Assembly (NCBI GenBank): GCA_036630325.1
Contig: CP142735.1
Location: 868,001-932,000, forward strand
DNA: 64,000 bases
Direction of reading: 5' to 3'
From: Vairimorpha necatrix
Taxonomy: Eukaryota
The notes below the pieces were generated by a model, which searched no databases, had not been told where the DNA came from, and was given only the letters and a program-made list of their open reading frames with translations. The position numbers were made by a program, and so were the translations under genes. Each line of letters begins with the position of its first letter. Within the stretch, counting starts at the first letter, position 1. Below, one piece after another: positions 2,535 to 64,000 of the stretch.

Positions 2535-2560
2535 AATAAACTAAAATGGGAGATATTTAT

Positions 2561-2793: not shown

Positions 2794-2894
2794 TTTATGC
2801 TATTTATGCATTGTATATTAATATGCATAAATAATATAAGCATAAATATTATATTATTAGCATAAACTTACATAAATATTTATATAATATTTAC

Positions 2895-30738: not shown

Positions 30739-31682
30739 CTAATATACAAGTACTTTGAGTTGAGACGCATGTCTTTTAAGCCTTCTTCCTTTTGATAATA
30801 CTATATACGAATTATTTTCTAATCGTTCTATAATCTGTCCTCTATCTTTAAACTTGGGTTGTCCTTTAGCTACAGCAAATTCGTTCTTTATTATCACCTG
30901 ATCGTTTTCATTGAACACTTCTTCGACTTCTTTATTCTCGTTTGCTTTGTTAAAGATAATAATTTCTTCGTATTGTTTTTCTTTTATTTTTGTCTCGTTT
31001 TCTTTTTTACAAGCTTCGTTTGGTGACATTCCTAGTTTCGAGTGGCAGATATTATTGTAAGCCTCTAACATTTTTAATAGTTTTGATTTTAGATTTAGAT
31101 TTCCCTCTTGTTTGTAAATCCCTTCCTGCACAGTTCTATTAAATCTTTCTACACGCCCATTTGATTGATGGTGAAAGGGCGTTGTGTAATGTACTTTTAC
31201 TTTATTCTCTATAGCCCAGTTCTTTACTTTGCTACTTTGGTTTTCTTTTGATGAATCCATTATCAACTCTTTAATTAATATTTGTTTGTTAATTTCGTTT
31301 ATAAAATCTACAATTTTCTGACTATCTCTAGTGGTAATAACTTTTCCAAACCCCTTTCTACTAAAGTAATCAATTCCTGTTATTATATATTGTTTATTTA
31401 TTGGTCCTATAATGTCTATAGCTACCTTTTCTCCTGTATAAAACGATTTAACGAACAAAAAGGCTTTTCCTCTTTTTGGATTATACATTTTACATCTTAT
31501 ACACTTTTTCAACTCTTCTTCAACTAATTTCTCCATATTATCCCAAGTATATTCCCTTTTAAGCTCTTTGGCTACTATTTTTGCTCCACGATGAACAAAT
31601 TTTTCGTATTTATCTTTAATAAGTTTCCTTTTTGTGTCATCATTTAAATCTTGAATTTCATTAACAACTTGGGCATCTTTTG
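30739..31682 (-). CDS. Integrase part of pol (different frame, joined by a shift near 31680)
   Basis: Frame reads KDAQVVNEIQ...VHRG...YTW..M...CIRC, IDIIGP, DYFSR, MDSSKE, SNGRVERFNRT; open to the stop before the PPT. Confidence 0.88.
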
Positions 31683-33950
31683 GTATAAGCGAGATATATA
31701 GTCTACATGTGCCATTTCTGCTCCCTTTCTGTATTTTACTGTGAAATTATACTGACTAAGTCTATCTAGCCATCTCTGTATTCGTTGAGAGCCTATTTCT
31801 CCTTTATTCAGAACTTCTAAGGCTTTATGGTCTGTTATTACTTCAAATTTATTCCCGTACAAGAAATATTTAAAATTCTCCATTGCCCATAATACTGCTA
31901 AGCATTCCTTTTCACTAATACTATAGTTTATCTCAGCAGGTAAAAGTCTTCTTGAAGCATATGAAATTGGATAAATCGTTTCACCTTGTCTCTGTGAGAG
32001 AATTGCGCCAACACCTGAATTACACGCATCTGTTTCTAGTATAAATGGTTTTGCATAGTCTGGTTGATATAATGCTATATTTGATTTTATAATAGTTTTA
32101 AGCTCATTGAAAGCTTTATCTTCCAGTTCTCCCCAACAAAAATTTTTATCTTTTTTGAGTAAATCATACAAGCATCCTGCAACACTTGAGCACATGGGAA
32201 TAAATTCTCTATAAAAATTTATAAAGCCAAGAAATTCTTGTAAAGATTTTATATTTTGGGGCGGTTTAATTTCATCAATACCTTGGCTAGCTTCTAATTT
32301 TGGTTTTATTTTGTTATATTCTATTATGTGTCCTAAAAATTCTACTGATGTCTTTTTGTAGATAGTTTTATCTTCATTTAATCGCAAATCATTATTTTTT
32401 AATCGTTCTGTTATAATCCGAAAATTTTTATCATGAATTTCTTCAGTTGTTCCAAAGACCAAAATATCATCAACATAAATGAAACATCTTTTACCAATAT
32501 CCTCTTGTAAAACATCATCCATAAACCGTTGAAATATAGCCGGCGAATTTTTAAAGCCCATTGGCATTACATTCCATTCGTACAAATGATGTTTATGTCT
32601 AAAAGCTGTCTTGTGCCTGTCTTCTTCTGCTAATTCTATTTGAAAAAATCCATCTTTTAAATCTAACTTTGAAAAATATTTTTGATCTTTTAAATTATGT
32701 AAAATTCTTTCTATACTTGGAAGCGAATATTTATCCAAATCTACTAACTTATTAAGTGCAATCAAATTTGTTGTTACTCGAACCGATCCATCTGGTTTCA
32801 TAACTGGTCTAAGATTGTTTAACCACGTAGATCTTGATTTTTGAATATATTTTTTCATTAACAACTTTTCTATCTCGGCGTCTATGGCTACTTCTAATTT
32901 CTGTGGCAATCCATACACTCTTTCTACGACCTTTTCTCCAGGTTTTGTTTTAATTTGACACACTCTGTTTTTTGGCTTTGCAAAAATTTTGATTAACTCC
33001 TGTTTTCCTAATAAAATTTTAAATTTATCAACCTTTGGTAAAATAAAGAGTTCGGTTTTATATATTTTGTCCATATAATTAAATTCAAGCTCTACTATAT
33101 CTCGTACTTTAAATTCTTCATCTAAACACGTAAAAAAGCTCAATTGCTTTATCCTCCTCGACACCTGTAATTTCAATTCTCTAACTGCACAATAAGAAAT
33201 AAAATTGAAACTAGAACCAGAATCAAAAACCACAGGTACTTTCTTAAAATTAACGTAGACGTAATTGTTTTTATTTTCATAAAATGAAGTGCTTTCTTCT
33301 AATCTCTCTTCATTATCAGATACTACCTCATGTACTTGCTTACTTGAACCAGTATCTCTATTTCTATTCCGAAAATAGCAACTTGTAGAAACGTGTCCTG
33401 GCTTTTTACAAATGAAGCAGGTTAAAGTTTTTCTCGGAGTTTCTTTTATGCTTAAATTTTTGAAGGAGAATGATAAATCGGCCTCCTTCTCCATTTCTTC
33501 AATGGTTTCATAAAATTCATCGTCAGTGTCATATTTACTGGATAAAAATATTTTTATAAGTTTATATCTGGGTTTAATACCGTTTTTTAGAATTTTCCTT
33601 CTATCCTTTTCTTCAATTTTTAAATCTTCGCATAATTTTATCGTTTCCTTTATAAATACAGAAACTGATTCATTATCCCTTTGTTTCTTAGAGCAAAGGT
33701 CTACAATAGAAATTTTTGTACTAAATTTCTCTATTGCTTTGTTTTTCCAATCTTCATAATTATAACTTGCTTTTCTTTTATTAGCAAATTCTTCTAAATG
33801 CCAGTTTAAGATATTTTCATCAAATCTACTTATAAATTCTTCCATTTTATCTTCGTCCTTTTTTATATTCCATTTACTAAGAGCCTCTGCTCTTTTTATT
33901 TCATGTATTATGTTGTTTTTAGTTATTTTTTCGTTCATATTCTCCACCAT
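31644..33950 (-). CDS. Gag-protease-RT-RNase H polyprotein (frameshifted before integrase)
   Basis: CFICKKPGHVSTSC knuckle, VFDSGSS protease, LDLKDGFFQ, MPMGFKNSP, YVDD, ETDAC, EKE, TDH. Confidence 0.93.
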   Translation of the reverse strand: MVENMNEKITKNNIIHEIKRAEALSKWNIKKDEDKMEEFISRFDENILNWHLEEFANKRKASYNYEDWKNKAIEKFSTKISIVDLCSKKQRDNESVSVFIKETIKLCEDLKIEEKDRRKILKNGIKPRYKLIKIFLSSKYDTDDEFYETIEEMEKEADLSFSFKNLSIKETPRKTLTCFICKKPGHVSTSCYFRNRNRDTGSSKQVHEVVSDNEERLEESTSFYENKNNYVYVNFKKVPVVFDSGSSFNFISYCAVRELKLQVSRRIKQLSFFTCLDEEFKVRDIVELEFNYMDKIYKTELFILPKVDKFKILLGKQELIKIFAKPKNRVCQIKTKPGEKVVERVYGLPQKLEVAIDAEIEKLLMKKYIQKSRSTWLNNLRPVMKPDGSVRVTTNLIALNKLVDLDKYSLPSIERILHNLKDQKYFSKLDLKDGFFQIELAEEDRHKTAFRHKHHLYEWNVMPMGFKNSPAIFQRFMDDVLQEDIGKRCFIYVDDILVFGTTEEIHDKNFRIITERLKNNDLRLNEDKTIYKKTSVEFLGHIIEYNKIKPKLEASQGIDEIKPPQNIKSLQEFLGFINFYREFIPMCSSVAGCLYDLLKKDKNFCWGELEDKAFNELKTIIKSNIALYQPDYAKPFILETDACNSGVGAILSQRQGETIYPISYASRRLLPAEINYSISEKECLAVLWAMENFKYFLYGNKFEVITDHKALEVLNKGEIGSQRIQRWLDRLSQYNFTVKYRKGAEMAHVDYISRLYQKMPKLLMKFKI

Positions 33951-35246
33951 GTTTATTTTAAGATATCTTAGGGGTAATAAAAATACAAATTTATAAATAT
34001 TCAACAATAATAAACAATTTTGAAGCTTTTACGACAATTTTATGATAAAAAGACGCAGAAGCAAACATTAATCAACTCAAATGGTTAAAAAATGTACGAT
34101 TTTTGATCAACGAAATTTGAATTTATTTCGTAAATGAAAATTTGGTATAAATCGATATATTTTATGTCATAAAATAAAGAGTTGCCTCTTAGTAGAACTT
34201 GCTGGTTCTATGATTAATAAAACAAAAAATACTAAAAAATCAAAATACTATTAGATTTATGTTTATATTGTTTAATTTTGATAATAGAAAGTTAGTATAA
34301 ACGAATACGAGTTCCAAAACAATATAGAATTAGCATAAAAAAATCATGCGGCCTTGAAAAAGCGTATGACAGTACAATCGAGATAATTAAGTGTGAAAAC
34401 AACAGGAGCTTTTATGGGACGTACCATTTTAGGCGATAATATCGGCTTTACCGGGTCAAGAGATCCACCTCAAAATTCGAATTTTATGACTTTTACAAAC
34501 AAATTTTTATACTAGTAGACGAGATTTACTCCTCAGACAGAAGGTAAAATTTAAAATAAAAACAAAATTAAACATTTTATAATACACTTTATTTTTTAGT
34601 AATCTGCTGCTCGAGAGCAGTCATACTTTACTTACGTTGCCATTGTTTTTACGCAATTTTCGTTAAGCTTATTAAGGTATCCACCACTGAGGAAAGTATG
34701 TAAAATGTTTTTAATGTAATTTTTACTTTTGCTTTCCATTACTCCGTCCCCAATTCGGGTAAAATAATTAAATAAATGTTGGAGGGGAAACAGGACGAAT
34801 TTGGAGGGAAAGATTTTAGAAATATTTTTTATGATATTTAGTATATCATACTTATTATTTCTCTTAGAGTGTAATATTTTTTTTCATAGAGAAAATTTTC
34901 AAATATTTTATATCAGTAGAAGAGATTCAACCATAGAAGAGATCCATGGCCTTTTCTATGGGGTGGATCTCTTAGCCCGGAAAACCAAGGAGCATTTTTT
35001 CGATATATTGCCTTTGAAAACAAAAAGTACTTTCTTATGTTGTATTTATTTATATTATTGGATTTTACTTTTTTCTTGTTCGAAATTTTGCACAAATTTT
35101 TTATTAATATATATATTCACATAACGAGGTTAAAGTATATTGTTTTTTTAAACGTATAATTAAAATCTTTTTTAAAATAAGATACAACCTTTTATCTGAA
35201 AATTTATTTGTTTTAATTGCAATTTCTACTAAAATACAAAAAAATA

Positions 35247-36539: not shown

Positions 36540-39500
36540 TGTTATAATCAGTAATAATATTAAACCCCAATTATGTTAAGCACTTATATGGGGGTGATAC
36601 CTAAAGAAGAGTTCACAAGAGAGGACTGTGGCCAAGTGGCCAGAAAGATGTTACAGGAGTTAGAGCGTATATTGTATGAATTGGATTTGAGAGATGTGGA
36701 TAGAGAGAAATGGAAGAGTGAGCTGTTCAAATTGGCTTCGATGGATTTAAAAGATTTTATTGTGAGAAATATCAAAAAGGAAGAAAATATTGAAGGAATA
36801 AGGAAGAAGCTATTGTTAAGGATTAAGGAAGTAGAGGAGGAAGAAAAGATATATGAGGAAATGAGAAAAATTATTTCTAGGACTATAAATGAAGAAATTA
36901 GTAGAGAACAACCAAGACAAAAATCGAGAGTACCGAGATGCTTCTATTGTGATAGACAAGGGCATAGGGTGTTTGAATGCAGACTGAAGATTAATAGAGA
37001 TAATTATTATAAAAAGAATAACAAGGATAACAGTTGCAAAATGGAAGTAGGTAGTGAATCAGAGTCAAGTCAGGAGCGAGATTTTAGAAGATCAAAAAGA
37101 GGACTTAGAGTCAAATTTGAGAAAAATCAAAAAGAATATGCCGTTAAAGAGGAGAGTAAGAGAATCAGATTAAATTTAGATAAGAATGCTAAGAGTTTTG
37201 GAGAGGTTTTTAAGTTAGGAAAAGAGGAGATAAAATATTGTAAACTGGAAAAATGTAAAATTAATACTGAAGCGGGTATGAAGGTATTTAAAAAGGGACA
37301 AATGGTTCCGCAGGCGTTGATAAAAGATACAGAGCTACATCTAGAAGATTTATTAAAAAGGAAAGTGATAAGAGAGTCAAATTCAAGTTGGAGGAATCCT
37401 ATAAGGTCAATCAGAAAGCCAAATGGTGAGATAAGACTGGTTAGTAATTTGATGGCATTGAACGATATTGTAGAAAAGGACGAGTATAGATTGTCTAACA
37501 TAAGAGATGTTGTAAGAGCTACACAAGGTGCAAAATATATGACGGGTTTCGACTTAAAAGAGGCCTTCTATAGTATTGAGATAGAGGAGGAGGATAAACA
37601 TAAGACGGCGTTTGATTTTAATGGCAAGGTTTATGAATGGAACTCTATGGTTATGGGATATAAGAATAGCCCGCAGATATTGCAGAGAATTATGGATAGG
37701 ATTTTTAGAGATATGAAAGGCAAAGGAGTAGAGGTGTATATGGACGATATTGTGTTGTACAGCCGAACGATAGGAGAACACGAGCAATTAGTGAAAAGGG
37801 TATTAAATAGACTGAAGGAAAACAATATGAAGCTGAATGCAAATAAAGTTCAGTTTTGTCAACGGGAAGTTAAATTATTGGGAGTCACTTTAAATGGAGA
37901 AGATATAATACCGTCAAGATAAAGAAAAATGAAGCCCTAGAGTTTCCGATACCAACATGCGTGTCAGATGTAAGAAGATTTTTAGGAATGACGGGTTGGT
38001 TCAGAGATTTTATTAAGAATTACGCTGGATTGACAGTTAGGTTGACAGATAGTTTAAAAGGGAAGAATGATAATTGGAAGTGGACGGATGATATGAAAAA
38101 CGAGTTTAATAATTTAAAAGAAGTATTGAAAGGCCTAGGAAAGCTGCAAATAGCAGACTATGATAAAGAATTTTTGTTGAGGACTGACGCTAGTAATGTA
38201 GGCATGGGCGCAGTACTGTTACAGAAAAATAATCAAGGAGAATGGGTGCCAGTACAGTGGGCGTCTAAGAAGTTTACCGTTACGGAAGTTAATTATGGTA
38301 TATCAGAAAAAGAAATGTACGCAGTTTTTTGGGGCGTTAAAAAGTTTGAATATGAATTAAGAGGTAGGAAATTTAGAATAGAAACTGATCATAAAGCGTT
38401 GGGCGAAATAAGAAACAAGCCCGACTTTAAGAATGCTAGAATTAATAGATGAGTCGAGAAGATTCAGGAATTTGATTTCGTGATAGAATATAGAACTCCA
38501 GAAAATATGGTCGTAGCCGATGCGCTAAGTAGGGTATATACAGAAGAAAAAGATGCAAAGAAAAAGAGAAATGAAATACGCCGTGATAGACAAAAAGAAG
38601 GGAAAAGAAATAAGCATGTAAAAATTGTAGAAGGTAAAGAATACTGGGTATTTGATAGTGGTAGAGAAGGCGAGATGCCTTTGGAACAAGACAGAGAGAG
38701 ATTAATAATGGATTGTCATGTCAATTTGAGCCACAGAAGCAGAACAACGGTATATTATGAGTTGAGGAAACAGTATTATTGGCCAGGAATTAAGGATCAG
38801 ATCGAAAAGGTCCTTAAGAATTGCGAGACTTGTCAGATTTTTAATAGAAAAACGAGTGGCGGTACTGATTTAGTGAACACGACAAGATATTTAGAGAAGG
38901 TTGGCTTAGATTTAATAGAATTTAGGGATGAGAAAGCGTTTATTGTTTTGGCAGTTGATTACTTTACAAGGAGATTATGGGGCAGAGTATTGAAGAGCAA
39001 GCACGCATCTGGAATTGCCGAATTTATCAAGGATTTGTGTAAACAGGGTAGAAAACCAGAGGAAATCATTACGGATAATGGTAAAGAGTTTTGCAACGAA
39101 AAAGTTACCGAGCTATGTAGAAATTTGGATATTAGTCATAGAAAGGTCAGCGTTGAGTCGCACAGAAGTAATGGAAGAGTAGAAAGAGTTATTAGAACTG
39201 TAAGAGATAGTATTTTAAAGAGCCAAAAAGAGGAATTCGAGAACAAGGTTTATGAAGCTATTGAGAAATATAATTTAAGTTTTCATGCTGGTATTAGGTG
39301 CACGCCAGTAGAAGCTTTAACCGATAATACAGGAAATGTTAGTATGGAGAATAGTCCAGAGGGAAAGTATGCGCAACAGTTCAAAAGTTGGTTTAGAGAA
39401 AAGTTCAAAAGGAACCAGATAGTTAGGGTTGCCAAGAATGAGAATTTAAAGGGATGTAGTAAGTATAGTAAGGGTCGATTTTTAGACATGGGAAGAGTGA

Positions 39501-39680
39501 TTGAGCTATGTCCAGGGGATTCATATATAGTGAGATTAGAGAATGGAAGGTTGGTGAAAAAAAGGCATTATGATCTTAAGGGTGTAGGGGATTTAAAGTA
39601 TGTTGAAGGAGACTAACCGTCTGGAGGGGGATGTTATAATCAGTAATAATATTAAACCCCAATTATGTTAAGCACTTATA
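36540..39680 (+). mobile_element. Ty3/gypsy LTR retrotransposon with 49-bp LTRs (TG...TA)
   Basis: Identical 49-bp repeats (36540-36588, 39632-39680); TSD TTAAA on both sides; PBS TGGGGGTGATACC from 36589; PPT GGAGGGGGA (39623-39631). Confidence 0.94.
36573..39616 (+). pseudogene. Gag-RT-RNase H-integrase polyprotein with one frameshift (~37917) and one nonsense codon (TGA 38450-38452); no visible protease
   Basis: CFYCDRQGHRVFEC, FDLKEAFY, YMDD, RTDAS, ETDH, H..SH...C..C, DLIE, TDNGKEF, SNGRVER. PSR* continues as IKKNEALEFP in the next frame, and RINR*VEK is at the conserved RW. Confidence 0.9.
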
Positions 39681-46217: not shown

Positions 46218-47900
46218 TTATTCGTCAATATATTCCGGGTCTCCTATGTCAATATCTTCTCCGTCTTCTTTATTCTTAAGATCTTTTATAAAATCCCTTA
46301 AGGTCCCCGAATCATTCTCTTTATTCTTTAGAGATGATATAAGTGACTTGATCTTATTGTTCATGTTCTGGTCATCTATGCTTACTGTCCTGGGAATGTC
46401 TTCCTTGCTTGTAGCGGGGCTTGAAGGGGGAGGACTTGGAGCTGCAGACTGATAATTATAGACAGTCTTTAGGACGGTAGTAGTGACAGTAGACTTAGAA
46501 GTCTGAGTCTCTGTACAACTGCCCTTATCCTTACAGGGATCTTCTTCTTTGTTCTTATCTTTATTTGAGTCTTTTTCTTTACTCTCTTTGTCTTTATTTT
46601 CCTTTTCTTTACTCTCTTTATCCTTGCTCTCTTTTTCTTTACTCTCTTTTTCTTTGCTAGGATCCTTTTCTTTGCTCTCTTTTTCTTTGCTAGGATCCTT
46701 TTCTTTACTAGGATCTTTGTCCTTGCTAGGATCTTTGTCTTTATTGGTATCTTTGTCTTTATTGGAATCTTTGTCTTTATTGGAATCTTTGTCTTTGCTG
46801 GGATCTTTGTCTTTACTCTCTTTAGTTGAGTCTTTGTCCTTGCTACTTTTATCTTTACCCTTGTCTCCGTCTTTACTGGGATCTTTGTCTTTCTCTTTGC
46901 TCTCCTTGTCTTTATCTTTGTCTCTCTCAAGTGCTTCAAGTTTTCTCAATATCTTCTGTAAAATGTTCTCATTTTCTTGGTTTTTACTTGGGCTGTATTT
47001 AGCTAGTAAAATATTATTAATATTGGAACATTCTGGTGGACAGCAAACATTTCCTTGGTTTTTACTTGGGTCTTGGCACGAACCTTGATTTGGGTCTTGA
47101 AACTTGTCTCTGTTCGGGTCTTGAAACATGTCTTTACTCGGATCTTGAAACTTGTCTTTACTCGGATCTTGACACTTGTCCTTAGTTGGATCTCGACATT
47201 TATCTTTGGTTGGATCTTGACACTTGTCTTGTTCTCCTTTGTCTACTGCTATATATTTCTTATACGACCCTGTAAACTTCAATGAATAATTATTCGGTAT
47301 CTTCTTCTTTATCTTACTAGCATCTTCTGTATCTCTCAATAAAAATATTAATTTATCATCATTCTCTTTACTATACTGAGGATCCTCTTCATCATCATAT
47401 TTATTTTCACATTCATCTTTTCTCTCTCCATAACACTGTTTATTATACGGACTACCTTTCCATTTACCATATCCATTTGCAAATACCTGTACCCAATACC
47501 TATTCTTATCTTTCCCTAAACATGACGACACACCCGTAAAATTATAATTCCCAAGTATATTCTTTTTATGTAACGGAGACTTAATCCAAACCTTAAAAAC
47601 TTCTTTAAAATCATCATTCTGTTGTTTCGCAATAATCTCGCCTATTTTAGAATACTTAAAATTAAAAAAATCCATTCTTTTTTTTAATGTTCGTTTTCTT
47701 GGATCAGGATTCTTATGTGTTAACTTATTTGATTTACACATCGTATTTGCTTGTAATTCACTAGCAAGTTTTAATGGCTCAATTACTTTTAACTCTTTTA
47801 AGCCGTGCATCTTCCTATACAAATTTGTCAATTTTATCATGTTGGTATTGCTTGATGAATAAAAAAATGGAAGAAGATGGAAAATGATCATATTATTCAT
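46218..47900 (-). CDS. Secreted CAP/SCP-domain protein with KCQDPSKD and KDKDPS/KEKES repeats
   Basis: N.YR..HGL..L, GEIIA, W.KSP.HKKNIL, YWVQVFA; signal-like MIIFHLLPFFYSS. Start uncertain (47900, 47891 or 48014). Confidence 0.85.
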   Translation of the reverse strand: MNNMIIFHLLPFFYSSSNTNMIKLTNLYRKMHGLKELKVIEPLKLASELQANTMCKSNKLTHKNPDPRKRTLKKRMDFFNFKYSKIGEIIAKQQNDDFKEVFKVWIKSPLHKKNILGNYNFTGVSSCLGKDKNRYWVQVFANGYGKWKGSPYNKQCYGERKDECENKYDDEEDPQYSKENDDKLIFLLRDTEDASKIKKKIPNNYSLKFTGSYKKYIAVDKGEQDKCQDPTKDKCRDPTKDKCQDPSKDKFQDPSKDMFQDPNRDKFQDPNQGSCQDPSKNQGNVCCPPECSNINNILLAKYSPSKNQENENILQKILRKLEALERDKDKDKESKEKDKDPSKDGDKGKDKSSKDKDSTKESKDKDPSKDKDSNKDKDSNKDKDTNKDKDPSKDKDPSKEKDPSKEKESKEKDPSKEKESKEKESKDKESKEKENKDKESKEKDSNKDKNKEEDPCKDKGSCTETQTSKSTVTTTVLKTVYNYQSAAPSPPPSSPATSKEDIPRTVSIDDQNMNNKIKSLISSLKNKENDSGTLRDFIKDLKNKEDGEDIDIGDPEYIDE

Positions 47901-49403
47901 ATTATTGTTTTGATTAGAAGTAAAAAATAATAATAAAAATGTTTGGAATTGTTTTAGAATGAAACATGGTTTTTTAAACAAAAAAAAAATTATGAGAAAA
48001 TGTAACCAGGGCATGAAACTCTAGATTATGAAAAATAGAGAGAGAAACTGGTAAATTAGGGGGTATAAAAAACGAAAATATTTATATAAAAAAAATTGAA
48101 AAAAAAATACTTTATTTTTCAATATTTTAAATATTTATGTGCTTTTTATTTTTTCGATAAATTCTTATTTGTTTACTTTTACTTCCTTATTGTTTTATTT
48201 CTCTTTTCAAATTTTGAAACAAAAAAAAAGTTTAGAGATCTCTAGTTTAAAATTTTTTAAATATGTAAAATAGTTCTAATATGTGCATTTGACACAAAAA
48301 AAAGAAATATTTTATATTAAACATTTTTGATTTAATAAGAGATTTTAGTTTAATAAATCATTCACATTCAACTTCACAATATATGTTATCACAAAAATAT
48401 AAAGCTTTAAGAATTGTTCTTTTTATATAAGGACTTAGTAGATCTATGAACTTGTAAAGAGCTTGTAGTGTTTATAATTCATATTATGATCATTTTTACA
48501 ATATGTTTATTGTGATATTAATTAAAAAGATATTGAAACTGGTATAAAATCATAATTATATAGTACAACCATCATAAAAAACCAAACGTATTCAAGAGCG
48601 CCAACATATAAAATCAGGACTTTTTAAGGAATTATTATTCTATTTAACATCGGGGCCATATTTGTGGCTTATAGTGTTGTATGTATCACAACATATGTCA
48701 CTTTATATTACCTTATTAAGCAGCATGATAAGGATCAAATTTTATACTCTCGTATTGATATAAATAATCAGGTATATATTACATCTGCATATCATACTAT
48801 ATAATCTATTATATACTGTTACGAGCATCAAAATAAATACAACTAATTAAAATACGTGTTAATTCTCCATATTATAATTAGTATCGACTTATATTATGTT
48901 AAATATGCTGAATAAACAAAAATAACAAACCACCAAAAAAATTTTACTTAAAGTATTAATTTGTCGACTAAATATTCTACAAGGAAAATATAAGTTTCAT
49001 AAAATATAAAATCAACTATCTTGCTTACTAAAATTGAGTCGGTTTTCTGATATCTAGTAACAAGGTTTATGTTTTTAAAAAAACAAATTCGCTAAAAATA
49101 TTATTAATTGATAACTATATTAAAAAGTCAATCCATGTTTTTAAATATGACCCGAGTTCATTTTGATAAATATGTGTATAATGAATGAGATGCACTTGCA
49201 TTTATTTTACTGTTATAATGTGTATACTTACTAGAAAATACTTTCAAGTTGTATGATTTTGCGACTTTGAAGGAAATCTTATTTTTTCTTCAAATACACT
49301 ATTATTAGTTTGTTTTTATACGTTTCTTATAACGTGAATTAATTTGCGGCCTTTAGCTGATGATATAAAAGTTTTTTTTAATCTGTGACGAAAACCAAAG
49401 CAA

Positions 49404-49643
49404 TTATGTTAATGCCATCGGCCTTTCAACTAGTACAAAAGCTTACATCCAAATGAGAGTTATAAAGAAGACACTAGAGAGCATCTCCTTTGAACACCAG
49501 CAGGGGCTCTCCGAGGGAATATCTGGAACCAAGAACATAGCAGAGGAAGCTAGAAGGTGGTGTGGCCAGATAGAGTGCGCGGCAGTGGAGGTAAATTGAA
49601 GAAGAAAACAAGCATATTAATAGCTTCAATAAATAAATTATAT
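49404..49643 (+). mobile_element. 3'-terminal fragment of an RLE-type non-LTR retrotransposon
   Basis: YVNAIGLSTSTKAYIQMRVIKKTLESISF followed by a 3' tail ending AATAGCTTCAATAAATAAATTATA; homologous to 53475-53740. Confidence 0.7.
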
Positions 49644-52600
49644 TTTTTTACAATATTACATTTGACTATTAGTTTATTGTTGCAGGAATTACATTAAGTC
49701 TCTATTTAATAGTTGCCAAATCTTATTTAGCTGTGATAGTAATGATCTATGGGCATCAACAAAAGTATTACCGTAGCAGTTTCATATAAAGTTATTAACG
49801 GCCGACGAAACATAAACTACAAATAAAAATACACATGTTTCATATTATGATTTAAATAATTAAACTAAGAATTGGTTTATGATATTGCTCTTTTATAAGC
49901 TATAATAAAGATTAAATGGAATATATAAGGCGCTTATTCTATCTCAAATAATATTTTGATTTGATCAATCATTATATTAAGAGTGAAGTTACTATAAATT
50001 CTAAATGGTTTTTTTAGTCAAATAAATTTTTTTGTCTTGTGTTATATTCTTATGGCGTGATTTTATAAACATCTTGGCCGTTTGTTTAGTGAGCTGTTCA
50101 TCTTCTTTAACCATGTATTGATTTTAATTTTTTTTAAATGTTTATTTGATTTTTTTTTGACATACGAATATGAATTTAACAAGAGTATTTTTCTATAAAA
50201 AGGAGTTCATATATATGTGCATTATTATGTTAAGTAGCCTTCCTTTCTAAAAATATTTTTTGATGTTCTCTAGAGTTTCCAATGAGAAATTTGTCGAATT
50301 AAACCTTTTTGTTGTACAAAATGAAATTTTTATGTAATTTTAACGGCTCCTATCAAATTAATAACTATAAATTAATCGTTGTTAAATATTTATTTATTGA
50401 ATTAATCTATATAAAAGATAGAACATACAGAATCGAAAATTTTTAAATATGAAAAAATGCACAATGCCCTGTATAAAATATGTATAAGACAGTCAGAAAG
50501 CTTTAATTCTATCTTGGGGAGAAAATTCTTTTGAGACCGAATTATTCTGTAAATATAATCATAGTTTTCTAGCGCAATGAATTATAATAATCTTTAACAT
50601 TAACTTCTATTTTATGTTTTGTATGAACCTTGAGACTCATAAAGGACTCTGCTTGCTTAATTATTCATTGTTTTTATGAGAACGAGATATCGCTATAAAC
50701 GATATTCGATACAAACTACATTAACATTATGTATTTTTATAACTACGCACAAACTATCTCATATTAAGGCGTTGCTACGTTCAGGCCATGGACTATTTCA
50801 ACAGGATGTTTTTATAAAAAAGATTATGTTAGAAGGTAAAATTAACATCCTGCTCAAGCTTCTCTGCATTGCCTTAAAATTGTCGGGATTAAGTCTAGAA
50901 AACGCAAATCCAGATTATCTACTTTTCTATATTAATTTTATTAAAACGTTGTTTTACATAAAAAATTTTGGGATCTCTTATATGCCGATTCAGTATATTG
51001 TATATAATAGGTGCTCATGTAGTAAATAAAAGTTAAAAATAGCGTAAAATCATTTAAACAATTTATAACACATTCAAAACTTATATGCTGATCAACCATT
51101 TTTAGATTATAGTGTAAGAAAAACTAATTAATTGAAAAAAAACATCGTTATTTGTTACGGATATATCTATAAGTAATAGGTGCGAAGAATTTTTAGTTTA
51201 AATGTTCTAAGTACAACTTGTCGCCATCCTTCATGATTTTGCTCTTTGTAATTATTAAATTTTTAATATTATTTGTGCATTTATCAATAAATTGTTATAT
51301 CGTCAACTTAAAGTCTTACCAAGTCTTTTTAAGTTAGCTTTCTAGCTAGCCACATATTTTTCTACGCTCTTATTTCATGAACATCATCAAATTTAGTCCA
51401 GGTCGTCGATCAAGGATTAGGTTTTAGGATTTCCTTGTTACTTTAGACTAAATGTAAGCTTTAAACAATTGTTTAGTTTATGGCAGACGGTTAACTTTTA
51501 TTATATAGGCCGCCGCCACATTCAACGTCATCCAAAATATCTACAGTTGTGATGAATTATTTATGATTTAATGTTCGAATGTAATCATAAATACTTATTT
51601 AGTTCTTAACTATTGACTATAGACAGTATATCCTAATTGTTTTCATCCTAGTCGTAATTTTTTTTATTCTTCATATCAAAAATAAGATTATATGCCTTAT
51701 CATCGGATACTCTTTATCTATAGATGTTATTGTTACAAAAAAAATTAATTTAAAATATTCAATACATATTATGTGCCTAAAAAATTCTATTAGTTGTAAA
51801 AAAATGTACTGTAAATGTTTGAACGTAAAGCACCTTAAAAAACATTCACGGCTTATATAAAAACAGGTAAAAATGACTAGTATTCAGTATAAAATAACAA
51901 TAAAATAGTTAGTTTATTAAAAAATGAATTATCCTTCAATTTAACACGTATGGTTGGTGTTGATAATATTTGAATCAATATATAAAACTCTCATATAATA
52001 TTTTTCTCGTTGTAGTATAGAATTTTAGGTCAGTACAAGAACATTTCTATCGAAATAATGCATCGTCTGAACTGTAAGTAGTGACATTTTCTTTTAATTT
52101 CTTGTAATTTGAACAATATGATAATGTTGATTTTTAATTGTTTTGAAATATATTTTGTATTGTTCAAAAATGCCATGAATTTTTTTATCTTTTTTAGATT
52201 TTATAACATGTTTTCGTCTTTACTTAAATGTTAATGAAAGAACCATCCTTTAACAATTTTTTAAAAATTAAGATACCATTGATAAAACTTTCCTCGGACT
52301 CATTTGAGTTTTCAATGTCTTGTATTATTGTTATGAGTTTTTTTATAAATGATTTCTTTGAATGTTTTTTTCAAATTCGAGTTTTATAATATAGATATAC
52401 GCATAATTACCCAACAAAATGAAGAATTTTTACATAAAGGCGCAATATTACTTTCTTGACTATTAATATTATCTATAGTATCAGGAATACTATTAATTAC
52501 GTTAATAGAACAAATAAAAAACACCTTCATTATATTAGCATAAACAATACAACAGTTCAATAAATAAAAAAACAAAAAATTTAGTATTTCTCATTGAAAG

Positions 52601-53474
52601 TAAAAATACTTGTTTTTATATTGTTAAAATTTAGGTACAGTGTTTCTTATTTACATATAATAGTCTAACCATATTATTTTAAAGTAGATTAATTATCTAA
52701 ATAATTTATTTACATAATCTGTCCCTGTAAATTTCACTCCTTATTATACATTCGAGTTATACAATAGCATGGTCAACAAAATTCGTTAATATAATTTATC
52801 TTTAATTCAATATTATATTGTATCGATAACAATGCTGTAAAATTTTATGCTCGAATTAAACACTTTTTGTGAAGTCATAAATAAAAATATCCGCAATTTT
52901 GTAAATTTCTACTAATCTCTAAATAGGTTCATCGAATTGTTCATCTTAAAAAATCAATCAAGCGACATACTAATCTTCAAGTATTAATATAATAAGAAAA
53001 AATTTATAGTTTTTTTATTCATAATAAATAATTAAGAATTTTATAATTAAAAATTATAAAGTAAGAAAACTCTGGAAAAAAAATTATATACGACAATTTT
53101 GTATCAAAAAAGAGATCACTTATAGATTTCTGTTTTTTATTTGTAGTTGGACTTGCAGTTTATCAATTTTTATATACCGCCATTCTGCCGATACTAATAT
53201 TGTTGTTTTTGATCACATATACATCTCTGATGTCTTTGATTAGTTCAAACACGAATTTCTTTAAGATTCAACTGTATTTTTTATCTGAAAAAATTAAATT
53301 TGCTATCTATTTTCACATTTAATACGCATATTTTGCTTCTTCTTACTTATAGATCTTTATAAAACAAAAATACTTATTCATTGAACTATTCACACAAAAA
53401 GTAGTATTTGTGCGAGTATCATGTACAATATCGCATAATTTTTAAATATTTCTTTGAATTATATTAGAATATAT

Positions 53475-53740
53475 ATAATTTATTTATTGAAGCTATTCGG
53501 GTTTATTTTCTTTTATTTTTCTCCACTACCTCGCAATCTATCTGATCACAACACCTAATAGTACTTCTTTATTTTCTTGGTTTCAGATCCTCTCTCTGCG
53601 AGTCCCTGCCGGGGTTAAAGGAGGTGCTCTCTAGTGTCTTCTTTATAAACCTCATTTGGATAAAAGCTTTGGTACTTGTCGATACACCGATGGCATTAAC
53701 ATATTTGCTGCGGCATTTTGTCACATTTCGTCCCATGTAA
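53475..53740 (-). mobile_element. Second 3'-terminal fragment of the same non-LTR family
   Basis: KYVNAIGVSTSTKAFIQMRFIKKTLESTSF and the same terminal AATAGCTTCAATAAATAAATTATA. Confidence 0.7.
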
Positions 53741-54569
53741 TGATGTAAGGAATTAATTGAATCTTGCATTTGTACATTAGGTCTAATTCGCTTGTTAAGA
53801 TACAGTACTTTTTGAGTTTTTCCTGTTCCACTTTCTGTAAATTATCCTGGAAGTTATTCCTATTCGATTAGCGTATTTTTTATTTTATTTGTCCATTCCA
53901 AATACATTAGGCTTATTATATTGCATCTTTATATCAGTGTTATTCCATCGCGTCTGCCCGAATTAATAATATGAGATAATCTTATCTATAGATAAATACA
54001 CCTTAAAAAGTAATTTTTTTATGTCATCTCTCAACTATCATTTTTTTCTAAAGGTTTAGCGGTAAAATGTGTTGTTGATGTTTAAAAGGAACGGATTCAT
54101 ATTTCAAGTTTCAACTATTTTTTTTAGATCTAATTTCGGGTAAATATTGAATTAAAATTAAAAATGATCATTCCACAATGTATTAGACATTGACTAAAGA
54201 GATATTGAACACCTCTTGAGTTTTAAGTAGGATTAATTATAATCAGTATCTAAAAATTTATAAAACATTTTCATATCTTTAAAAGATATTCTGTTATGAA
54301 ATAATATTTCGAATTTGTGATATGAAGAAGAGAGTAGGTTGACAAGGTTCTACTACATCGATTACAACCCACGTGTTTCTATTCTTTCACGCGAGACACA
54401 AGTCTTTTAATAGTCATAATCATAACAAAATTTAACTATATTATAATCAATTTAATCCAAATGAGATCTCTTTGTATGAAAAATTTGAACATGAAAATTT
54501 TTATATTGAGAGAATGTAATTTTGAAGACGAAGAAGAAAAAAGATTATAGTAATGTATAATGTTAAAAA

Positions 54570-54608
<39 letters not shown>

Positions 54609-55266
54609 TATGTATTTTGTATGTGCAATGGAAATTATGTAACAATATGATTTAATAAGAAAGGCAATTATATAAAAACCAAATAACAAGCATCAAATTA
54701 ATATTATTGGCAAAATGGTTCGTTCTTGTTAAAAAAACACCTATATTATAAAATCAAACAAAAATTAAAACATCACAAATGATTTGAGTAAAACGAGTAT
54801 CGTATTAGGTAATTATACGTCATATAAAGTTGTCTTTAAATTTATAGGAGTTGGTTTTTAGTTTATGACGAAAATCATCTCAAAAATTAAATAATTTGAT
54901 GAAAATGAGTTATATCTGAAAAATAAATATTAAAAAATGATGTATGTGTTATGTGAAGGTCCTCAATATTAATAAAAGAATTTAAATTCAACAGAATTTG
55001 CCAAAAAAGTAATAAATCAATAAAGTCAAAGAACATTAAGAACTTATTGGAACACTTGGCAAAATACTAATAATACCCAAGATATAATCCAAAATCGGGC
55101 CTGTTTCATTAACTGTTACAACTTAATAAATACTAAAATATATCGTTAAGAGATTTTAATTTGGATTGGTAGGGCTATCACGGTTAAACATACAAATTAC
55201 TTCATGTATTGTAATTATTAAAAAATTCCATTTTTTTATAAATTTAAAGTTTTCTTTAGCCCATAG

Positions 55267-55971
55267 ATGTTTGTACCTTTATCTCTAATTATAGACTTAA
55301 ATCGAATCGTTACTAATAATCAAGAGAATAACATTAAGGATTTTATGGCTTGTTCTGAAATACTTTTTGGAGAAACTGCAAATTTAAAATATAATAATTA
55401 TATACAAGGGAGGGCAATATCAAATCTAATATTTAATTCTATTTTTGATGAAATAAAGTTTCCAATAAAAAGTCAACCCAATTGGCCAAAAGATAATGAA
55501 AAAAAAGACTATGAAATTTCTAGGAAAGATTTTAATGACATTTTGATATGGAATGCACAAAAAGGTGCCTTTAATTTAAGAAAACGTCATGGTAAGAAAA
55601 GTGTTATTTTTGAATTTTTATATTCACTTGGTGCCCTAACTCGCTCTTTGTATAATATGCTAGTTTTTTATGAAATCAAATTCAAAAGTATGAACGCCAA
55701 TAAACTTAAAATGTTAATTTCTAAGCATTTAAATATTATCATGGATGCAAACAAAAGCTATAAATTTAAACAAGTTTTTAATACTGAGGATTACATAAAT
55801 ATCATCGAGGATATAAAATATATTCTAGAAGTACCAATAAACTCAGAAAATATTGCAAATTTACGAAGAATTAATCATAATACAAGATATAACGTGTTGG
55901 ATGATTCTAATTCGGGCTTTGAGGTTAAGCAAAATTTAACTGCTTCTTTAGATATTTTAAGTCTAGAATAA
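55267..55971 (+). CDS. Hypothetical protein
   Basis: 234-codon ORF, CCC upstream of ATG, AATAAA overlapping the stop; no known motif. Confidence 0.75.
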   Translation: MFVPLSLIIDLNRIVTNNQENNIKDFMACSEILFGETANLKYNNYIQGRAISNLIFNSIFDEIKFPIKSQPNWPKDNEKKDYEISRKDFNDILIWNAQKGAFNLRKRHGKKSVIFEFLYSLGALTRSLYNMLVFYEIKFKSMNANKLKMLISKHLNIIMDANKSYKFKQVFNTEDYINIIEDIKYILEVPINSENIANLRRINHNTRYNVLDDSNSGFEVKQNLTASLDILSLE

Positions 55972-57088
55972 AGAATTGACGTTTTATTTTATTTTTTATC
56001 TTTAAATGTCTAAATAAACTTATCGTTGTATAATAAAAAAAATTTTTATACACTAAATAATGTTTATAATGAAATCTAAACCACAAACAAAAATTTACTT
56101 AAAATTAACATCGCTTAGAGATATTTAAAATGAAAACTTTGCATTTTGTTTTTTGCATGTGTAACAATTTAAAGTTATTCTTTTAAAGGTTCTATTGACG
56201 TTGTAGAAACAATTTTCTACAAAGATGAAATTATTATTTTTTAATCATAATATATAAAATTTTTGTATGCTTAATTATTAGTTGTTTTTCTTCGGCTTTA
56301 GTTCTTATATGCAAATAAACGTAGTTATTCTGTACTTCATACGCTGGTCAAACAACATTGCACTCTTTTGGTTTAATAACAAAATGAACTCAATTTTTTA
56401 CAAAAATAAATAGATATTCGATTATGCCTTATTTCGTGCAACACTCTATGTTTTATGTGATATTTAGTTAGCTGTCTTAACAATGTTTTTATGGATTTCT
56501 TAATCCTTCATACATGAGTAACAAAGCTTGAGTATAAATAACTGATAATAAAATTTGTTTTGCAAGAAAAAAAAACTAATCACATACTTCATAATAAACA
56601 ATATAATATAAACCCCATATTTGCGAAATATAATACCGCAATTAAAGTTTTTTATTATATAACAGACTACTCCACTTTTAAACTCTATATAAATATGATT
56701 AAAAAATCTTGGTTTTTAAAAAAGTAAAAAACAGTAGCCATACAATTATTCATGAAGTAGTTTTTGTGAAGGTATAAGTTAACACTACTATAGAAATTCA
56801 TTATTTTTTTTCTATCTAATTATGTTAAAATCGATCAAATTCAATTCTTTGTATTATAATTTTTTTTTCAAAAATTTCATGAACTAAATAAAAATAATAG
56901 AAGTTTTTTAATTCATAATACTATAAAATAAAAATATACACTATTTTTTGATTTAATTGAAACAATTTGATATCTATTCATTGATAAACTCCGTGTATAT
57001 ATTGCGAATTATTGCAAAAGTTCATTATGTTCACTGTTGCAAGGGTACAAATTTTGATCCAAACCAGTAGATGCAAATAACAATTGCG

Positions 57089-57890
57089 AGGTGCCCTTGG
57101 CCGAGTGGTCGAAGGCATGTTCTCATTGACCAATGGGCTGGGTTCGAGTCCCAGGGGCACCAAATTGTTTCTACTTTCTATGATGCAGTTGGAACAACTC
57201 AGATGATGAAAATGTCCACGGTAATCATTAAGTTGATTCAATGAAACTTGTGTGTGTCCAGCCACAAGGGGATTAGCATCTAGTGTAGAAACGCACCTCA
57301 AGGCCAAAAAGCAGTATCGCCCTCTGGTGACTTAATGATACATAAAAGTATCTAATGGGTACGGCCTAGTTGGAGCCCATGGCTGGTGCACTCTAGAGTG
57401 GGATCCTAGAGCTAACTAAGAGACTAGACGAAGTAGGGCAATAGAAGGTCTCGTGGACCCTATCCTACATGATTCTGTAACACGGTGGCCGAAACTAGTG
57501 GGAGACTGGTGGTCAACGCAGTCCAATAAAAATGCCGGGCTGGGGATGTGGTCGTGTAAGGAGCCGTGTGTGCGATACAGATGATTGTAGGGACCTTTGA
57601 GTCAGTACGATGATGTCTCTCCTCGGGTTATAGATAACCATGCCCGTTAAGTATATCCGCTGTGAGGTCACTCTGGACGCGATTTGAGGTATAAATGGAA
57701 AGTGTTCTCCTGGAGCCAAAGTCCAATGGATACGGCGGAGCTTGCTGCACCGGCAAGTTATACGGAGGGAGTTTTAGTGAGTAAGAATCTCACAGTACCA
57801 GTTGGAAAAGGATCACACCCAAATCCCTCTGGTCCCTATGTAAGGTTTCTCCCTACCTCTTACTTGCAAAGAAAAAAAAAAAAAAAAAAA
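57089..57890 (+). mobile_element. tRNA-derived SINE-like retroposon (~800 bp)
   Basis: Head with A box TGGCCGAGTGG and B box GGTTCGAGTCC; acceptor GGTGCCC/GGGCACC; T-stem CTGGG/CCCAG; poly(A) tail; 14-bp TSD AAATAACAATTGCG (57075-57088, 57891-57904); GC-rich body. Confidence 0.92.
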
Positions 57891-59649
57891 AAATAACAAT
57901 TGCGTAGCCATTTTAGTTAGAAACTTTAAGGTCATTGAAAATTGTAGAATTAATATTTAATCTGGAAAAACTGCAATTTTTTTGTTTTGTTTAATCACTA
58001 AATTAATTCAATTGGTTATTTTTTTTATAATTATAATATAAAGATTATAAATACGTTACACAGAATTTTGTTTTTTATTTACAATTATTTTGTTTTAAAC
58101 ATTACATCTGAGTCTAATTTGTTAACATTTATAAAAAAATCTGTATAATAAATACAACTAATAAAAAATTGTTTTAATTTTTTCATGTTCTAACAACTTA
58201 AATTATATTAATTTATTTTGCCAAATGAATATATGGTTTTAACTTTATTTATATTTTTTATATTTAAAAAATAAAAACGAACAAGGCTTATAACAGAGAT
58301 GAATCTCCACCTGGATGCATATCCGACTATATCTTAAAGATTAGAAATGGCGATATGAATACTGCTATATTCAAAAATAGCAAGGATGGTCAGACTTACA
58401 AACAGAAACGACATAGAAAAAAAAATGAGGTAAATATTAAGAATCGGTCTCAGGAAAATGATCAAAAGTTGTATATATTTAATGTTTGAAGTATATTGCA
58501 CGCTTACAATCGTCCTATTCTAGATATATATGATTTCATAGGATATTAATATGCAGATAGCATTGGCGTTTTTTGTGGTCTTTATAATGATATTAAATGT
58601 TATAATTGATTAAGATGAATGCCATTGAATGAAATGTGGGGATAAGAAAATTTATAAGACAGACTTACAATTTTAGATTTTACCTTTTATTTAATTAATA
58701 TGCACAAAAAATGTAGACGTTAAAGACGAGGCGATACATAAACTTACAAATCTCCTTTAAATAAAAAATTCAATGAGAAATTTCCATAAATAAACTAATA
58801 TGTAATAGTTGTATGCGTCATATTATATGCATTTGTTTCGTTTGTATTCAATTTTAAATTAATTTAAGAGGAGGAGTTGAGGGAAAATATGTGTTAGTTA
58901 TGCATTCTTATGCACATATGTTTTTTCTTTAACGTATTTAATTACGATATTATAAAAAAAATTCTTTAGAAACAAAAATATTATCATCTTGTGCTTTGTA
59001 AGTTTGAAATGAATCTTATAAATACAAGAGAAAGCTCCCATTAAATTTTCAAAATACTTATCTTATTCAATAATTAATTTCTTTTATGTTATTTTTTAAA
59101 AAATTTTACTTATACCTAAAACATAAAACGTCTTAAATCTGGATTAAATTTTTGCGAAAACCAAGATAATTTTGTGCTTTACATAACCCTTCAATAATTA
59201 TATTATTTTTACAACAATTAAAACTCATTTATATGTAATTTAAACTAGATAAATCATAGGCATCTTTCGAGAGATGGAATTTTCTTATCATTACATCCAG
59301 GTTTAACACATATTTTTAAACGATCGCAAGACCTTCTTTTGAAAATTTTCATATAAAAACAAATAGACATACTATATATATATATATTAAATCTGCTATA
59401 TAACAGGCAAAAAAATTATTTTTTACTTTTTGAATTATAAGGTTTTTTGAATTTTCATAAAAATATGTCCATACTTAATATACATCAAAGGAAATATTTA
59501 AGAACAGAGACCAAAGAAAATTTTTTGCACTTACTGAATTTAATAAACTGTATTGGAATTTATTGTCCCATTTTGAATAAACCCATTTTACAAGTTATAA
59601 TAATTCTCAAAAGAAGATATTTTTGAGTTTCTAAACGAGCTATGCCACT

Positions 59650-60080
59650 TAAATGTTACACTTTAGAATTAAAAAAGAAAATAAAAGTTCTTAAAAAAAT
59701 TTATGCAAAAATACAAAAAATCAATATTGGAGTAATTACAAGCCCATATACTAATTGTAGACAATTTGAAGATAGAAGTGATCGTTGTTGAAGTTGGAAT
59801 CACAAGCTGTAACAACCTTCATGCGGTAGAAACAGAAAAAACATAAATACGACTTGCTTCCAAATTATGTAGCTTCTCTCTATAAAAAAAGAGCCGAAAA
59901 TTATTTCTTATTTAATGATTTGAGATGAAATAGTAACTAATTTTCAACGCGCGCAACCAAGAGCTTCGATTAAACCAGAAAACCGAAGCATTATACAACC
60001 AAGACTTCTTAAAATATCTTTAGAAAGCCTAACTATGTCAATCAGACAGGGGCTTGATACTGATTAAGAAGGGGTATTTG
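59650..60080 (+). mobile_element. Degenerate RLE-type non-LTR retrotransposon endonuclease region
   Basis: Fragments NYKP.ILIVD..IVVEVGITS.NNLHAVETEK..KYDLL and ..LLKISLESL, a PD-(D/E)xK-like endonuclease broken by frameshifts; may extend upstream to ~59300. Confidence 0.7.
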
Positions 60081-60541
60081 AGAGTCCAATGCTTGATTTT
60101 CAACAGGAACTGTCAGAAGAGACTGTAAGCGTATCTTGAAAAGTAATTAGTAAGTAAGATATTATATTATACCCAAAAAAGTATTTTATCTTGATGTAAG
60201 TATCCAACTAAAACCATCATTTATACAGCTATAAGCCCTCATATCAACATGATCAATATTTAAATTTCAAAAGGTCTTTTAGCGACAATGTGCTTAAACT
60301 TTTTTTTTTGCATTTAAAGTTGAGCTTGCATGCATATATTACATCTAATACAAACCTCCCTTACAATACACCTAGGCATACTAAAGTATTGTTCTTTACA
60401 CATATCGTAGAGGCGGTTCGCGCTAAAATGATGATGCCGATGAAGTACTTAGACCAGTATTTTTATAGCTTAGACCATTGTACTCACAAATACTCGTTTG
60501 TACCGTTCCCTCACATCCTCCAAAAAAAGAATGTTATGTAC

Positions 60542-61239
60542 GGTACATGACCGTTTGGAACCCGCTTTGGGAAAATGAACCCGCATTGGGAAAATGAACC
60601 CGCATTGAAATTTTAAAGGACCCCCCTTTAAAAAATGGCAAAATTGGCAAAAACAATGTTTGTTGAAGCAGATGAGGTTTTTAGTGATAAAATATATTCA
60701 TACATGGAATATAAAATAAAGTTTATTTTGGAAACATTTGATGCTGAAGCGGCGTCGCCTTGCTCGTTTCTGTAACTGGTAGAAATACTGCTTTTTCCTT
60801 GAGGTAATACAAGAAAATGTATAACCTGTTTCTATTATGATCTCTAATCAATGGGTAGCATATGATGTCACATTAGCTAAGCAAAGGGATGGTCACAGTA
60901 CTAAGAAACACTCCATAAATGCTGTACCCTCTAGCGATTCTGAGTCACAACACCATATAATTTAGTTGGTTTTGGCTCATTTCTATAAGAGATATTCGAT
61001 CTTAACATAAACAAAGAAGAACACTATGAGTACCTTTTACAGTTTCACTAGGCTTTTCAAATTCCCAAAAATCACCGGATAAATTGTCTTCTGTCATTAT
61101 TTAAAATAAATCATCAAGTCCTTTTTTTTATAACTTTTTTTATTTTTCCCTTTTTTGAATTTTTTTTATTTTTCCCTTTTTTTGAATTTTTTCAATGCGG
61201 GTTCATTTTCCCAAAGCGGGTTCCAAACGGTCATGTACC
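60542..61239 (+). mobile_element. Merlin DNA transposon, internally deleted non-autonomous copy
   Basis: Perfect TIRs GGTACATGACCGTTTGGAACCCGCTTTGGGAAAATGAACCCGCATTG; perfect 8-bp TSD TTATGTAC (60534-60541, 61240-61247); transposase remnant IQENV.PVSIMISNQWVAY. Confidence 0.92.
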
Positions 61240-64000
61240 TTATGTACAAGAACAAAATTTTGGGATTTCTTTTTAGCCTGTATTTCAAATGTTTGTCACA
61301 ACAGGCCATACTCATCCCCTTTATGTATTTAGACAAGGCGATCATACTAAACTTTGCCTTCTACCTCTTTCATTGGGGGCAAAAAAGTAATTCTTTTTTT
61401 AAATGATAAATATATACTATAAATAATGCAAAATATTTATGCCATCAGCTTGGCAATGTGGTTTTTATGGGCATCCATTACTTCGGAGTACTTGAGTTAG
61501 AATCTCAGCGTCATCCAATTTATTAAGAGATCAAAAAATTAAAAAAAATTGAATAAAATCATAAACAGTTAATATACATATATGTGGTTTGTTTAATTAC
61601 AAATCACCAAATTTAATAATGTTAAAAATTGATGTAAGGTTTGACAAATTAGTAAAAATAAGGTCACGCATTGGGCGCAATCGATTTTGGGCCCGCGAAA
61701 ATATATAATAACATATTAAGTTAAATACAAATTGGGTTTGTGAAATATTGAGAAATTTTAAAATTAAATAATGTGAATCCTTATTTGGTAAAATATAAAT
61801 TTGTCGATTGTGTCAAGTTTTGGGAGTAATATCAAACAACCCCTAATATACCGTCAGTAATTAAAAAAAGAATTCTTTTATTACTTATACTGGCATTTAT
61901 ATATGATCTTGGAAGATTTCTAAAACTAGATTTATTAGGTTTAATAAGATATATGCAGAAATGAGGCTAACTTATCTGAAGGTCCCAAAAAATGAATGAA
62001 TTCGCGCTATTAAAAAAGAGTAAGAAAGAATTTACTATCTATGATATAAACGAACATTTGGATTAATTTGAGATTCCTTATCATAGTAAGATTTTATTGT
62101 ACTTATAAATAAAGCCGTAAGCTTTGTAACTAGAATTTTGCAAAGAATAATCAAAGTTCATTTCACCAATATTAAACTTTGGAAATTTTTTCTGATGAAA
62201 TTAGATAAGATAACCATTGAGTTAAGTGTACGCAGCTTTTTGTGAAAAAAAATCTTTAATATGATCTTAAGATAGAAACATAGAATTAAGAAAAACATTA
62301 AGCGGTGGTGATTTCAAAATAAAGGCTTTATTCAAGAACGCATCTATATATTTACGGGTTAGAAATATTAGATTTTTTATGAAATTGAAATAGCTCTCCA
62401 TACATGTTGTTGGTAACTGATGCTTTGCGCAAAATCTATATCAAGAATTTATTAAGAACGAAGAGCAACTAATCAAGAAAAACTAAAAAAATGAAAGATC
62501 GCCAATGAAAATAATTTTTTGGTTTTTGATGTTAGTACAAACGAAGACATTTATTCGTAAAATTAAAAATTTACGAATTATTATAAAAATACAAATCATA
62601 GAGCCAAAAATAGAGTATACAATTTTAAATACGATTCTACCTAGGTACAGACATCTAGGGACATGAAAACTAACGTGGACATTAAATAATACTACTCTGT
62701 GAGTATTCTTCTCCTTACCATGTATAATTTTTAAGGAAAAATGGTTTATTTCTCCGACTAAAATTATAAATGAAAATCAAACCCTTGGGGCTATAAGTGA
62801 TATAAAAAGTTAAGTTTGAAACATTCTTTCCGGCCGATGAGAAATTATCAGTCCTCAAAGTCTATCGAATGGAATAAGTAAAAATTGATAGGGGTTGTAC
62901 CTTTGTAAAAGTGTCCAAAATACAACGGAAAAGAAACTAGGAAACTTATTCTGTTAATACAACGAGATATATTAAGATATTTTGTTTATAACTCGCCGAG
63001 TACATATGAAAGGGGTTTCTATGAGAAAATTGCAGTTAAGTTACAAATACAATGGTCATTGCCTTTGCGTTAATGTCGTTAAATGGAAATTTTCCAAAGA
63101 TTTATATGCAAAAAACCTAAAGAAAGACAAATACTGATAACTATTTATCATAAACATAAAGGGTATAAAACACATCGTTCAACGCTAAATACTGCTCATA
63201 ATAAGCTAGAATTCAAAGCTACAGAAATAATAGTATATTTTTGCCGATAATAGGAACATTGTATGATACTTTCATAATGGGGCTAGAAGTTGAGTTAAAG
63301 GTAAAATTTATAATACTATAGAAATAAATTTAAGCTTTCACGTTAAACCTTAACGCATGATGATGTTTTAAAGATTTAAAATTTCATAGTACTTCCTGTT
63401 AAAGTCTTCAAAGTAATTATACCAGCAAGATAAAAACTGTTTTTGAAAAAACACTTAAAAAATTAAAGTATAGAGGCCTGAAATAAAATATAAGTAATAA
63501 AATAAAATTTTTGGGTAGTCTTAAAACTTTATAACCTTAACAAAATTTTTGTAGATTCTATGGGTACGATTATTATTATATTCTATTGAAAATAACGTTA
63601 TAACATAAAGTATCATATATTAACGAATGTTTAAAATTTATGCTTATGCTTGAGGGATACCTTACATAATTTTACAAACTTAGTCTATATGAAAAGAATT
63701 TTTTGAGTTGACACAGCAATTTTAGATGTTTTAAGTGTGGCAGGGCCACATTGTATTTCTATATATTGTCCAACGGAATTGGAAATTTGACTTGAGTTAT
63801 AAATAGGAATAAAAACTATAAATCAGCATGGCAAATTAATGCAGTGAAAAATGTAAGAAATGTGCATTTAAAAGCTTGCACAGGGAAGGTATATCCATCG
63901 ATGATATAACAACAGTTTGTATATGTAGTCTTTTTATTACCACTTTACACAAATCTAGATCAAGGTCCTAACAAAACTTTTCTCGGGTCGTAATACCGAT

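Follow-up and report, generated by a model that had tools for sequence, protein, structure and literature searches.

A putative SINE-like retroposon of about 0.8 kb with a tRNA-derived head and a perfect target-site duplication in the microsporidian Vairimorpha necatrix

What kind of sequence is an insertion of about 800 bp that begins with a tRNA-like unit, ends in a run of A and interrupts the AT-rich DNA of the microsporidian Vairimorpha necatrix, and how did it get there? The window, that is, the whole 64-kb stretch of contig CP142735.1 that was analysed, has a GC content of 27%, contains no N and is packed with long intronless open reading frames (ORFs). Between the genes lies a perfect tandem repeat, a simple satellite with a 15-nt unit (2545–2865, plus strand), one frame of which reads YIILY repeatedly, and a 600-aa ORF (46218–48020, minus strand) has a globular N-terminal part followed by a long tract of low complexity that is enriched in K, D, S and P, with KDKD/SKDKD-type repeats. 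The part from 48000 to 64000 is gene-poor amid this gene-dense window, with few ORFs longer than 100 aa, and the insertion (57089–57890) sits there in a 4-kb non-coding gap. It consists of a tRNA-derived head of 73 nt, a non-coding body of 709 nt and a pure A run, is flanked by a target-site duplication (TSD), measures 783 nt without the tail and is single-copy within the 64 kb. With the exception of the isotype label of the head, every feature that a preliminary description had listed for this tRNA-headed insertion was found in place. In our reading, the insertion is probably a tRNA-derived, SINE-like retroposon copy of young age. On anatomical grounds, "SINE" describes it best, with membership in a repeated, pol III-transcribed and LINE-dependent family being putative.

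The head (57090–57162, plus strand) was detected with ARAGORN and with the Rfam tRNA model. ARAGORN reported a perfect 7-bp acceptor stem, a D stem of 3 bp, a T arm of 5 bp whose loop reads TTCGAGT, and an anticodon stem that pairs at three of five positions, with a nominal call of Met(CAT). This is the only tRNA-like gene that the program finds in the 64 kb, and none of 300 dinucleotide shuffles of the element gave a tRNA-like call. The Rfam tRNA model aligned to the head from end to end, skipping the anticodon arm, with a score of 28.3 bits against a threshold of 29 bits; at gathering thresholds, the Rfam scan listed nothing in the whole window. A functional tRNA gene was rejected on the basis of this subthreshold score, the skipped arm and the three paired positions of five. 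The "Leu/Ser-like" label of the preliminary description could not be upheld: the CAT call of ARAGORN sits on a badly paired stem, so that no isotype can be assigned to the head.

In line with the claim that the head has intact A and B boxes and intact acceptor and T stems with no proper anticodon arm, both pol III promoter boxes were found on the plus strand. A box A-like element, TGGCCGAGTGG, lies at 57098–57108 and a box B-like element, GGTTCGAGTCC, at 57141–57151, the latter being the only full match in the window. Both match the consensus (TRGCNNAGTGG for box A and GGTTCGANTCC for box B) perfectly. Relative to the first inserted base, an A at 57089 that precedes the acceptor stem by one nucleotide and is the presumed 5' end of the RNA, their positions are +10 and +53. 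A pattern that combines an A-box part with a complete B box at pol III spacing had a single match in the window and none in 100 shuffles. Judged from this arrangement, box A at +10 would place the first base of the insert where pol III should initiate on the head. Downstream of the acceptor stem and discriminator A, the sequence continues with AATTG instead of CCA. Since there is no CCA and the anticodon arm is degenerate, the template would have been the primary transcript of a tRNA-like unit rather than a mature tRNA; a chimeric retrocopy built on a mature tRNA was rejected given the missing CCA at the junction with the body.

Both ends of the insert are clean. The sequence AAATAACAATTGCG is present at 57075–57088, where it ends one base before the tRNA-like head, and again at 57891–57904 (both on the plus strand), the two copies being identical at 14 of 14 positions. 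The tail (57872–57890, plus strand) is a pure poly(A) of 19 A, or 22 counting the first three A of the duplication, and this run (57872–57893) is the only run of A or T of at least 12 nt in the window. The pair of 14-mers alone proves nothing, since exact 14-mer pairs 300–1500 nt apart are equally frequent in the window (six) and in block shuffles (mean 5.8). The duplication is significant because its copies abut the insert ends, with the head on one side and the A run on the other; from the base frequencies of the window, the chance of a 14-mer repeat abutting both ends is estimated at about 0.3^14. The perfect 14-bp TSD and the pure tail of the preliminary description were thus confirmed, and its proposal of a recent insertion by target-primed reverse transcription agrees with the exact duplication, with the tail and with an insert that starts one base ahead of the head. 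LTR elements make target duplications of about 4–6 bp, and retroposition by an LTR element is therefore unlikely given a duplication of 14 bp.

The body (57163–57871, plus strand) is non-coding. Its three sense frames contain 11, 17 and 14 stops, and the longest ORF wholly within the element, on the opposite strand, has 86 aa. A Pfam search with eight ORFs of the element gave no real family match, including none to a reverse transcriptase, and Rfam found nothing in the element besides the head. A 5'-truncated LINE copy was rejected, given the absence of a reverse transcriptase among these eight ORFs and protein searches that returned no relative (see below). The fold energy of the whole element (−252 kcal/mol) is close to that of 20 shuffles (−243 ± 9.5 kcal/mol, z = −0.94), three of which fold at least as well. 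AATAAA has a single occurrence in the element, at 57525, some 350 nt away from the tail; the 3' end thus shows no obvious sign of ordinary pol II polyadenylation. The reported absence of sense-strand runs of five or more T was also seen by us and speaks for the SINE reading. A single T4 run (57772–57775) is present on this strand and may act as a weak pol III terminator. This run could end a pol III transcript early, which counts against that reading.

The element differs from its surroundings in composition. Its GC content is 48.1% (46.8% for the body alone, 57163–57871) versus 22–25% in the flanking intergenic DNA, in agreement with the earlier statement that it lies far above the flanks. 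The composition shifts abruptly at both ends of the element, and the flanks continue alike on either side. Among the other stretches measured for comparison, six ORFs have 26–37% GC, the richest being a 14-3-3-like ORF named from its translation, and two Ty3/gypsy-type elements have 30% and 36%. These two retrotransposons (30739–34028, minus strand, and 36564–39616, plus strand, the latter split over three ORFs) were recognized by eye, their translations showing reverse-transcriptase and integrase motifs. The CpG observed/expected ratio is 0.58 in the element and 0.83 in the window; individual genes of the window have values between 0.48 and 0.99, so that the value of the element is not an outlier. 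The GC excess of a non-coding and apparently unstructured element points to a short exposure to the AT-biased drift of the genome, suggesting that the sequence has not been under this drift for long. The window also contains a non-coding island of about 500 nt with 41% GC between two genes (14480–14980), for which Rfam gave no match even with E-values of up to 1 admitted and which does not resemble the element; candidates for its identity are a decayed repeat and an undescribed RNA gene. The element shows no similarity to six GC-richer islands elsewhere in the window.

A mechanism can be proposed from these features. An RNA of about 0.8 kb would start at the tRNA-like head with its internal boxes A and B, end in the A tail and serve as a template for the enzymes (endonuclease and reverse transcriptase) that a resident non-LTR (LINE) element of the microsporidian encodes. 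The first nick would fall in the bottom strand at a T-rich site, which on the reverse complement of the target reads 5'-TTATTT^GC; the T run would pair with the A tail and prime cDNA synthesis, and a second nick 14 nt away would give rise to the duplication. LINE families have been recorded in all four Nosema species surveyed, with 4 to 15 in each (PMC4202319, Table 1). In the window, no LINE or reverse-transcriptase remnants were found besides the Ty3/gypsy-type elements, which counts against the SINE reading, and a Pfam search with 65 ORFs of at least 50 aa from the gene-poor parts (48 of them from 48000–64000) revealed no relevant family.

Relatives of the element were sought in public sequence data. 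A k-mer index of public runs reports parts nearly identical to the element, expressed as shares of the sampled words, for 20 runs from 18 studies. Five of these runs hold 0.32–0.69 of the sampled words and carry two different organism labels or derive from bat gut, freshwater and bovine metagenomes; the other 15, with shares of 0.04–0.17, were not used as evidence for a habitat or host. The matches may come from this locus, from other copies or from a relative in another organism. Exact searches gave no matches for a 26-mer of the body in viral, metagenome and prokaryote-genome contig collections, for a 24-mer of the 3' end in metagenome and viral contig collections, or for a 24-mer of the head in prokaryote-genome and viral contig collections, and blastn in distant mode found no match of the element among phages, plasmids and E. 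coli genomes. Three ORF translations (86, 81 and 68 aa), included in case gene callers had translated other copies, had no match in a collection of 5.8 billion protein clusters. One sense frame, read through with X at stops, gave three matches among 1.84 billion representatives (E-values 2e-5 to 5e-4). They were judged spurious, as the proteins are long and repeat-rich (with Pfam Reelin, PKD, CHU_C and other families) and the matches are sums over repeats. The collections searched in these ways were not built to hold microsporidian or animal genomes, and their empty results therefore say little. A plant-organelle or bacterial origin, which could explain the spread over metagenomes, was rejected: no match was obtained in the collections searched, and the head encodes no CCA.

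The features described above have to be weighed against readings in which the element is not a native SINE copy. The same mechanism could have acted on a foreign element: a SINE of an animal host or of another GC-richer eukaryote would have entered the intracellular microsporidian recently, as DNA or RNA, and would have been integrated by the LINE machinery of the parasite, with very few other copies besides this locus, if any. We regard such a crossing as rather unlikely; acquisition from a host would fit both the outlying composition and the precedent of host-derived transposons in Nosema. A non-coding body with 46.8% GC in a window with 27% and among intergenic DNA with 22–25%, the lack of a fold stability that would hold this GC content up (z = −0.94) and the very young appearance of the copy are all compatible with a foreign source, as are the publications on piggyBac (PMC3614468) and Lep1 Helitron (PMC4038834) elements that describe them as host-derived in Nosema bombycis. 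Two further observations are ambiguous: the CpG ratio of 0.58 versus 0.83 for the window is matched by single genes (0.48–0.99), and the k-mer shares of 0.32–0.69 under different organism names and in bat gut, freshwater and cattle metagenomes may stem from the microsporidian itself in infected animals.

An origin as a one-off retrocopy outside any transposon family appears improbable. In this case, one transcript of pol III or pol II that happened to start with a tRNA-like unit would have been copied a single time, or a LINE enzyme would have switched template from another RNA to a tRNA-like RNA and so produced a chimera. The element is single-copy in the window, no sequence collection searched contained a relative and the body fits no known family, as expected for such a copy, but the missing CCA at the head–body junction and the degenerate anticodon arm indicate that the head is not a template-switched mature tRNA, the insert starts at the position expected of a pol III transcript from the head, a poly(A) signal is absent near the tail, and a private copy would leave the matches that the k-mer index reports for 18 studies unexplained. 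The abrupt jump in composition at both ends would also be seen if contaminating DNA had been joined into the microsporidian contig or if the assembly were chimeric. An exact 14-bp duplication of an AT-rich target abuts both ends, however, the flanks are alike in composition, the contig that carries the insertion comprises 1,069,813 bases, and a misjoin would not yield a duplication plus an A tail, all of which makes an artefact of this kind very improbable.

No described SINE family of microsporidia was found in full-text searches of the main articles of the literature. The repeat table of Pan et al. for N. bombycis contains the entry "SINE 28,669 bp, 0.18%", given there without comment (PMC3614468). 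Parisot et al. never use the word SINE, the genome paper on Microsporidia sp. MB reports no SINE, and surveys of microsporidian transposons count LINEs, LTR elements and DNA transposons. If the element is indeed a young tRNA-headed retroposon with clean ends, it would demonstrate present-day activity of a LINE enzyme in a Nosema/Vairimorpha-type genome, and mobilisation of non-coding RNA in trans by this enzyme. If the element is foreign, the transposon traffic from hosts to microsporidia would extend beyond DNA transposons and Helitrons to pol III retroposons, and a true host transfer would mean that a pol III retroposon that moved from host to parasite had been caught as a very young insertion. 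The insertion could moreover serve as a presence/absence marker for strains.

Among known systems, the element is most readily compared with tRNA-derived SINEs (SINE2/tRNA), with which it shares a tRNA-related head with A and B boxes, a non-coding body, an A tail and a LINE-type duplication. The Rfam model for mascRNA-menRNA also aligns to the head, covering the acceptor stem, the T arm and a hairpin that replaces the anticodon arm, with 28.7 bits, which is well below the threshold of that family (42.5 bits) and about equal to the score of the tRNA model (28.3 bits). The mascRNA and menRNA units lie at the 3' end of long vertebrate pol II transcripts. The usual length of SINEs is about 100–700 bp. 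The preliminary description, whose target-primed insertion fits the data, overstated its case in calling the element unusually long: 783 nt exceeds the usual range but lies within the 0.7–0.9 kb of long fungal SINEs as given in PMC5063351, namely mgsr1 of Magnaporthe (800 bp) and Egr1 (700 bp) and EGH24 (900 bp) of Erysiphe/Blumeria; Mg-SINE (472 bp) and Foxy are further fungal SINEs listed in that source. Unlike these, the element resides in a microsporidian, and the likeness described here is one of anatomy and length. With respect to a possible recent arrival in a parasite, suggested by composition and youth, the element resembles the Lep1 Helitrons (PMC4038834) and SlNPVSE1, a SINE that moved between Spodoptera and a baculovirus (PMC8010984), all three being non-autonomous. 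As presented in these two sources, the cases of Lep1, which is a DNA element and not a retroposon like the present one, and of SlNPVSE1 rest on high identity to host copies, whereas that of the V. necatrix element rests on its composition and youth. Contact between host and parasite would be the route of entry, as for Lep1 and SlNPVSE1 in those accounts.
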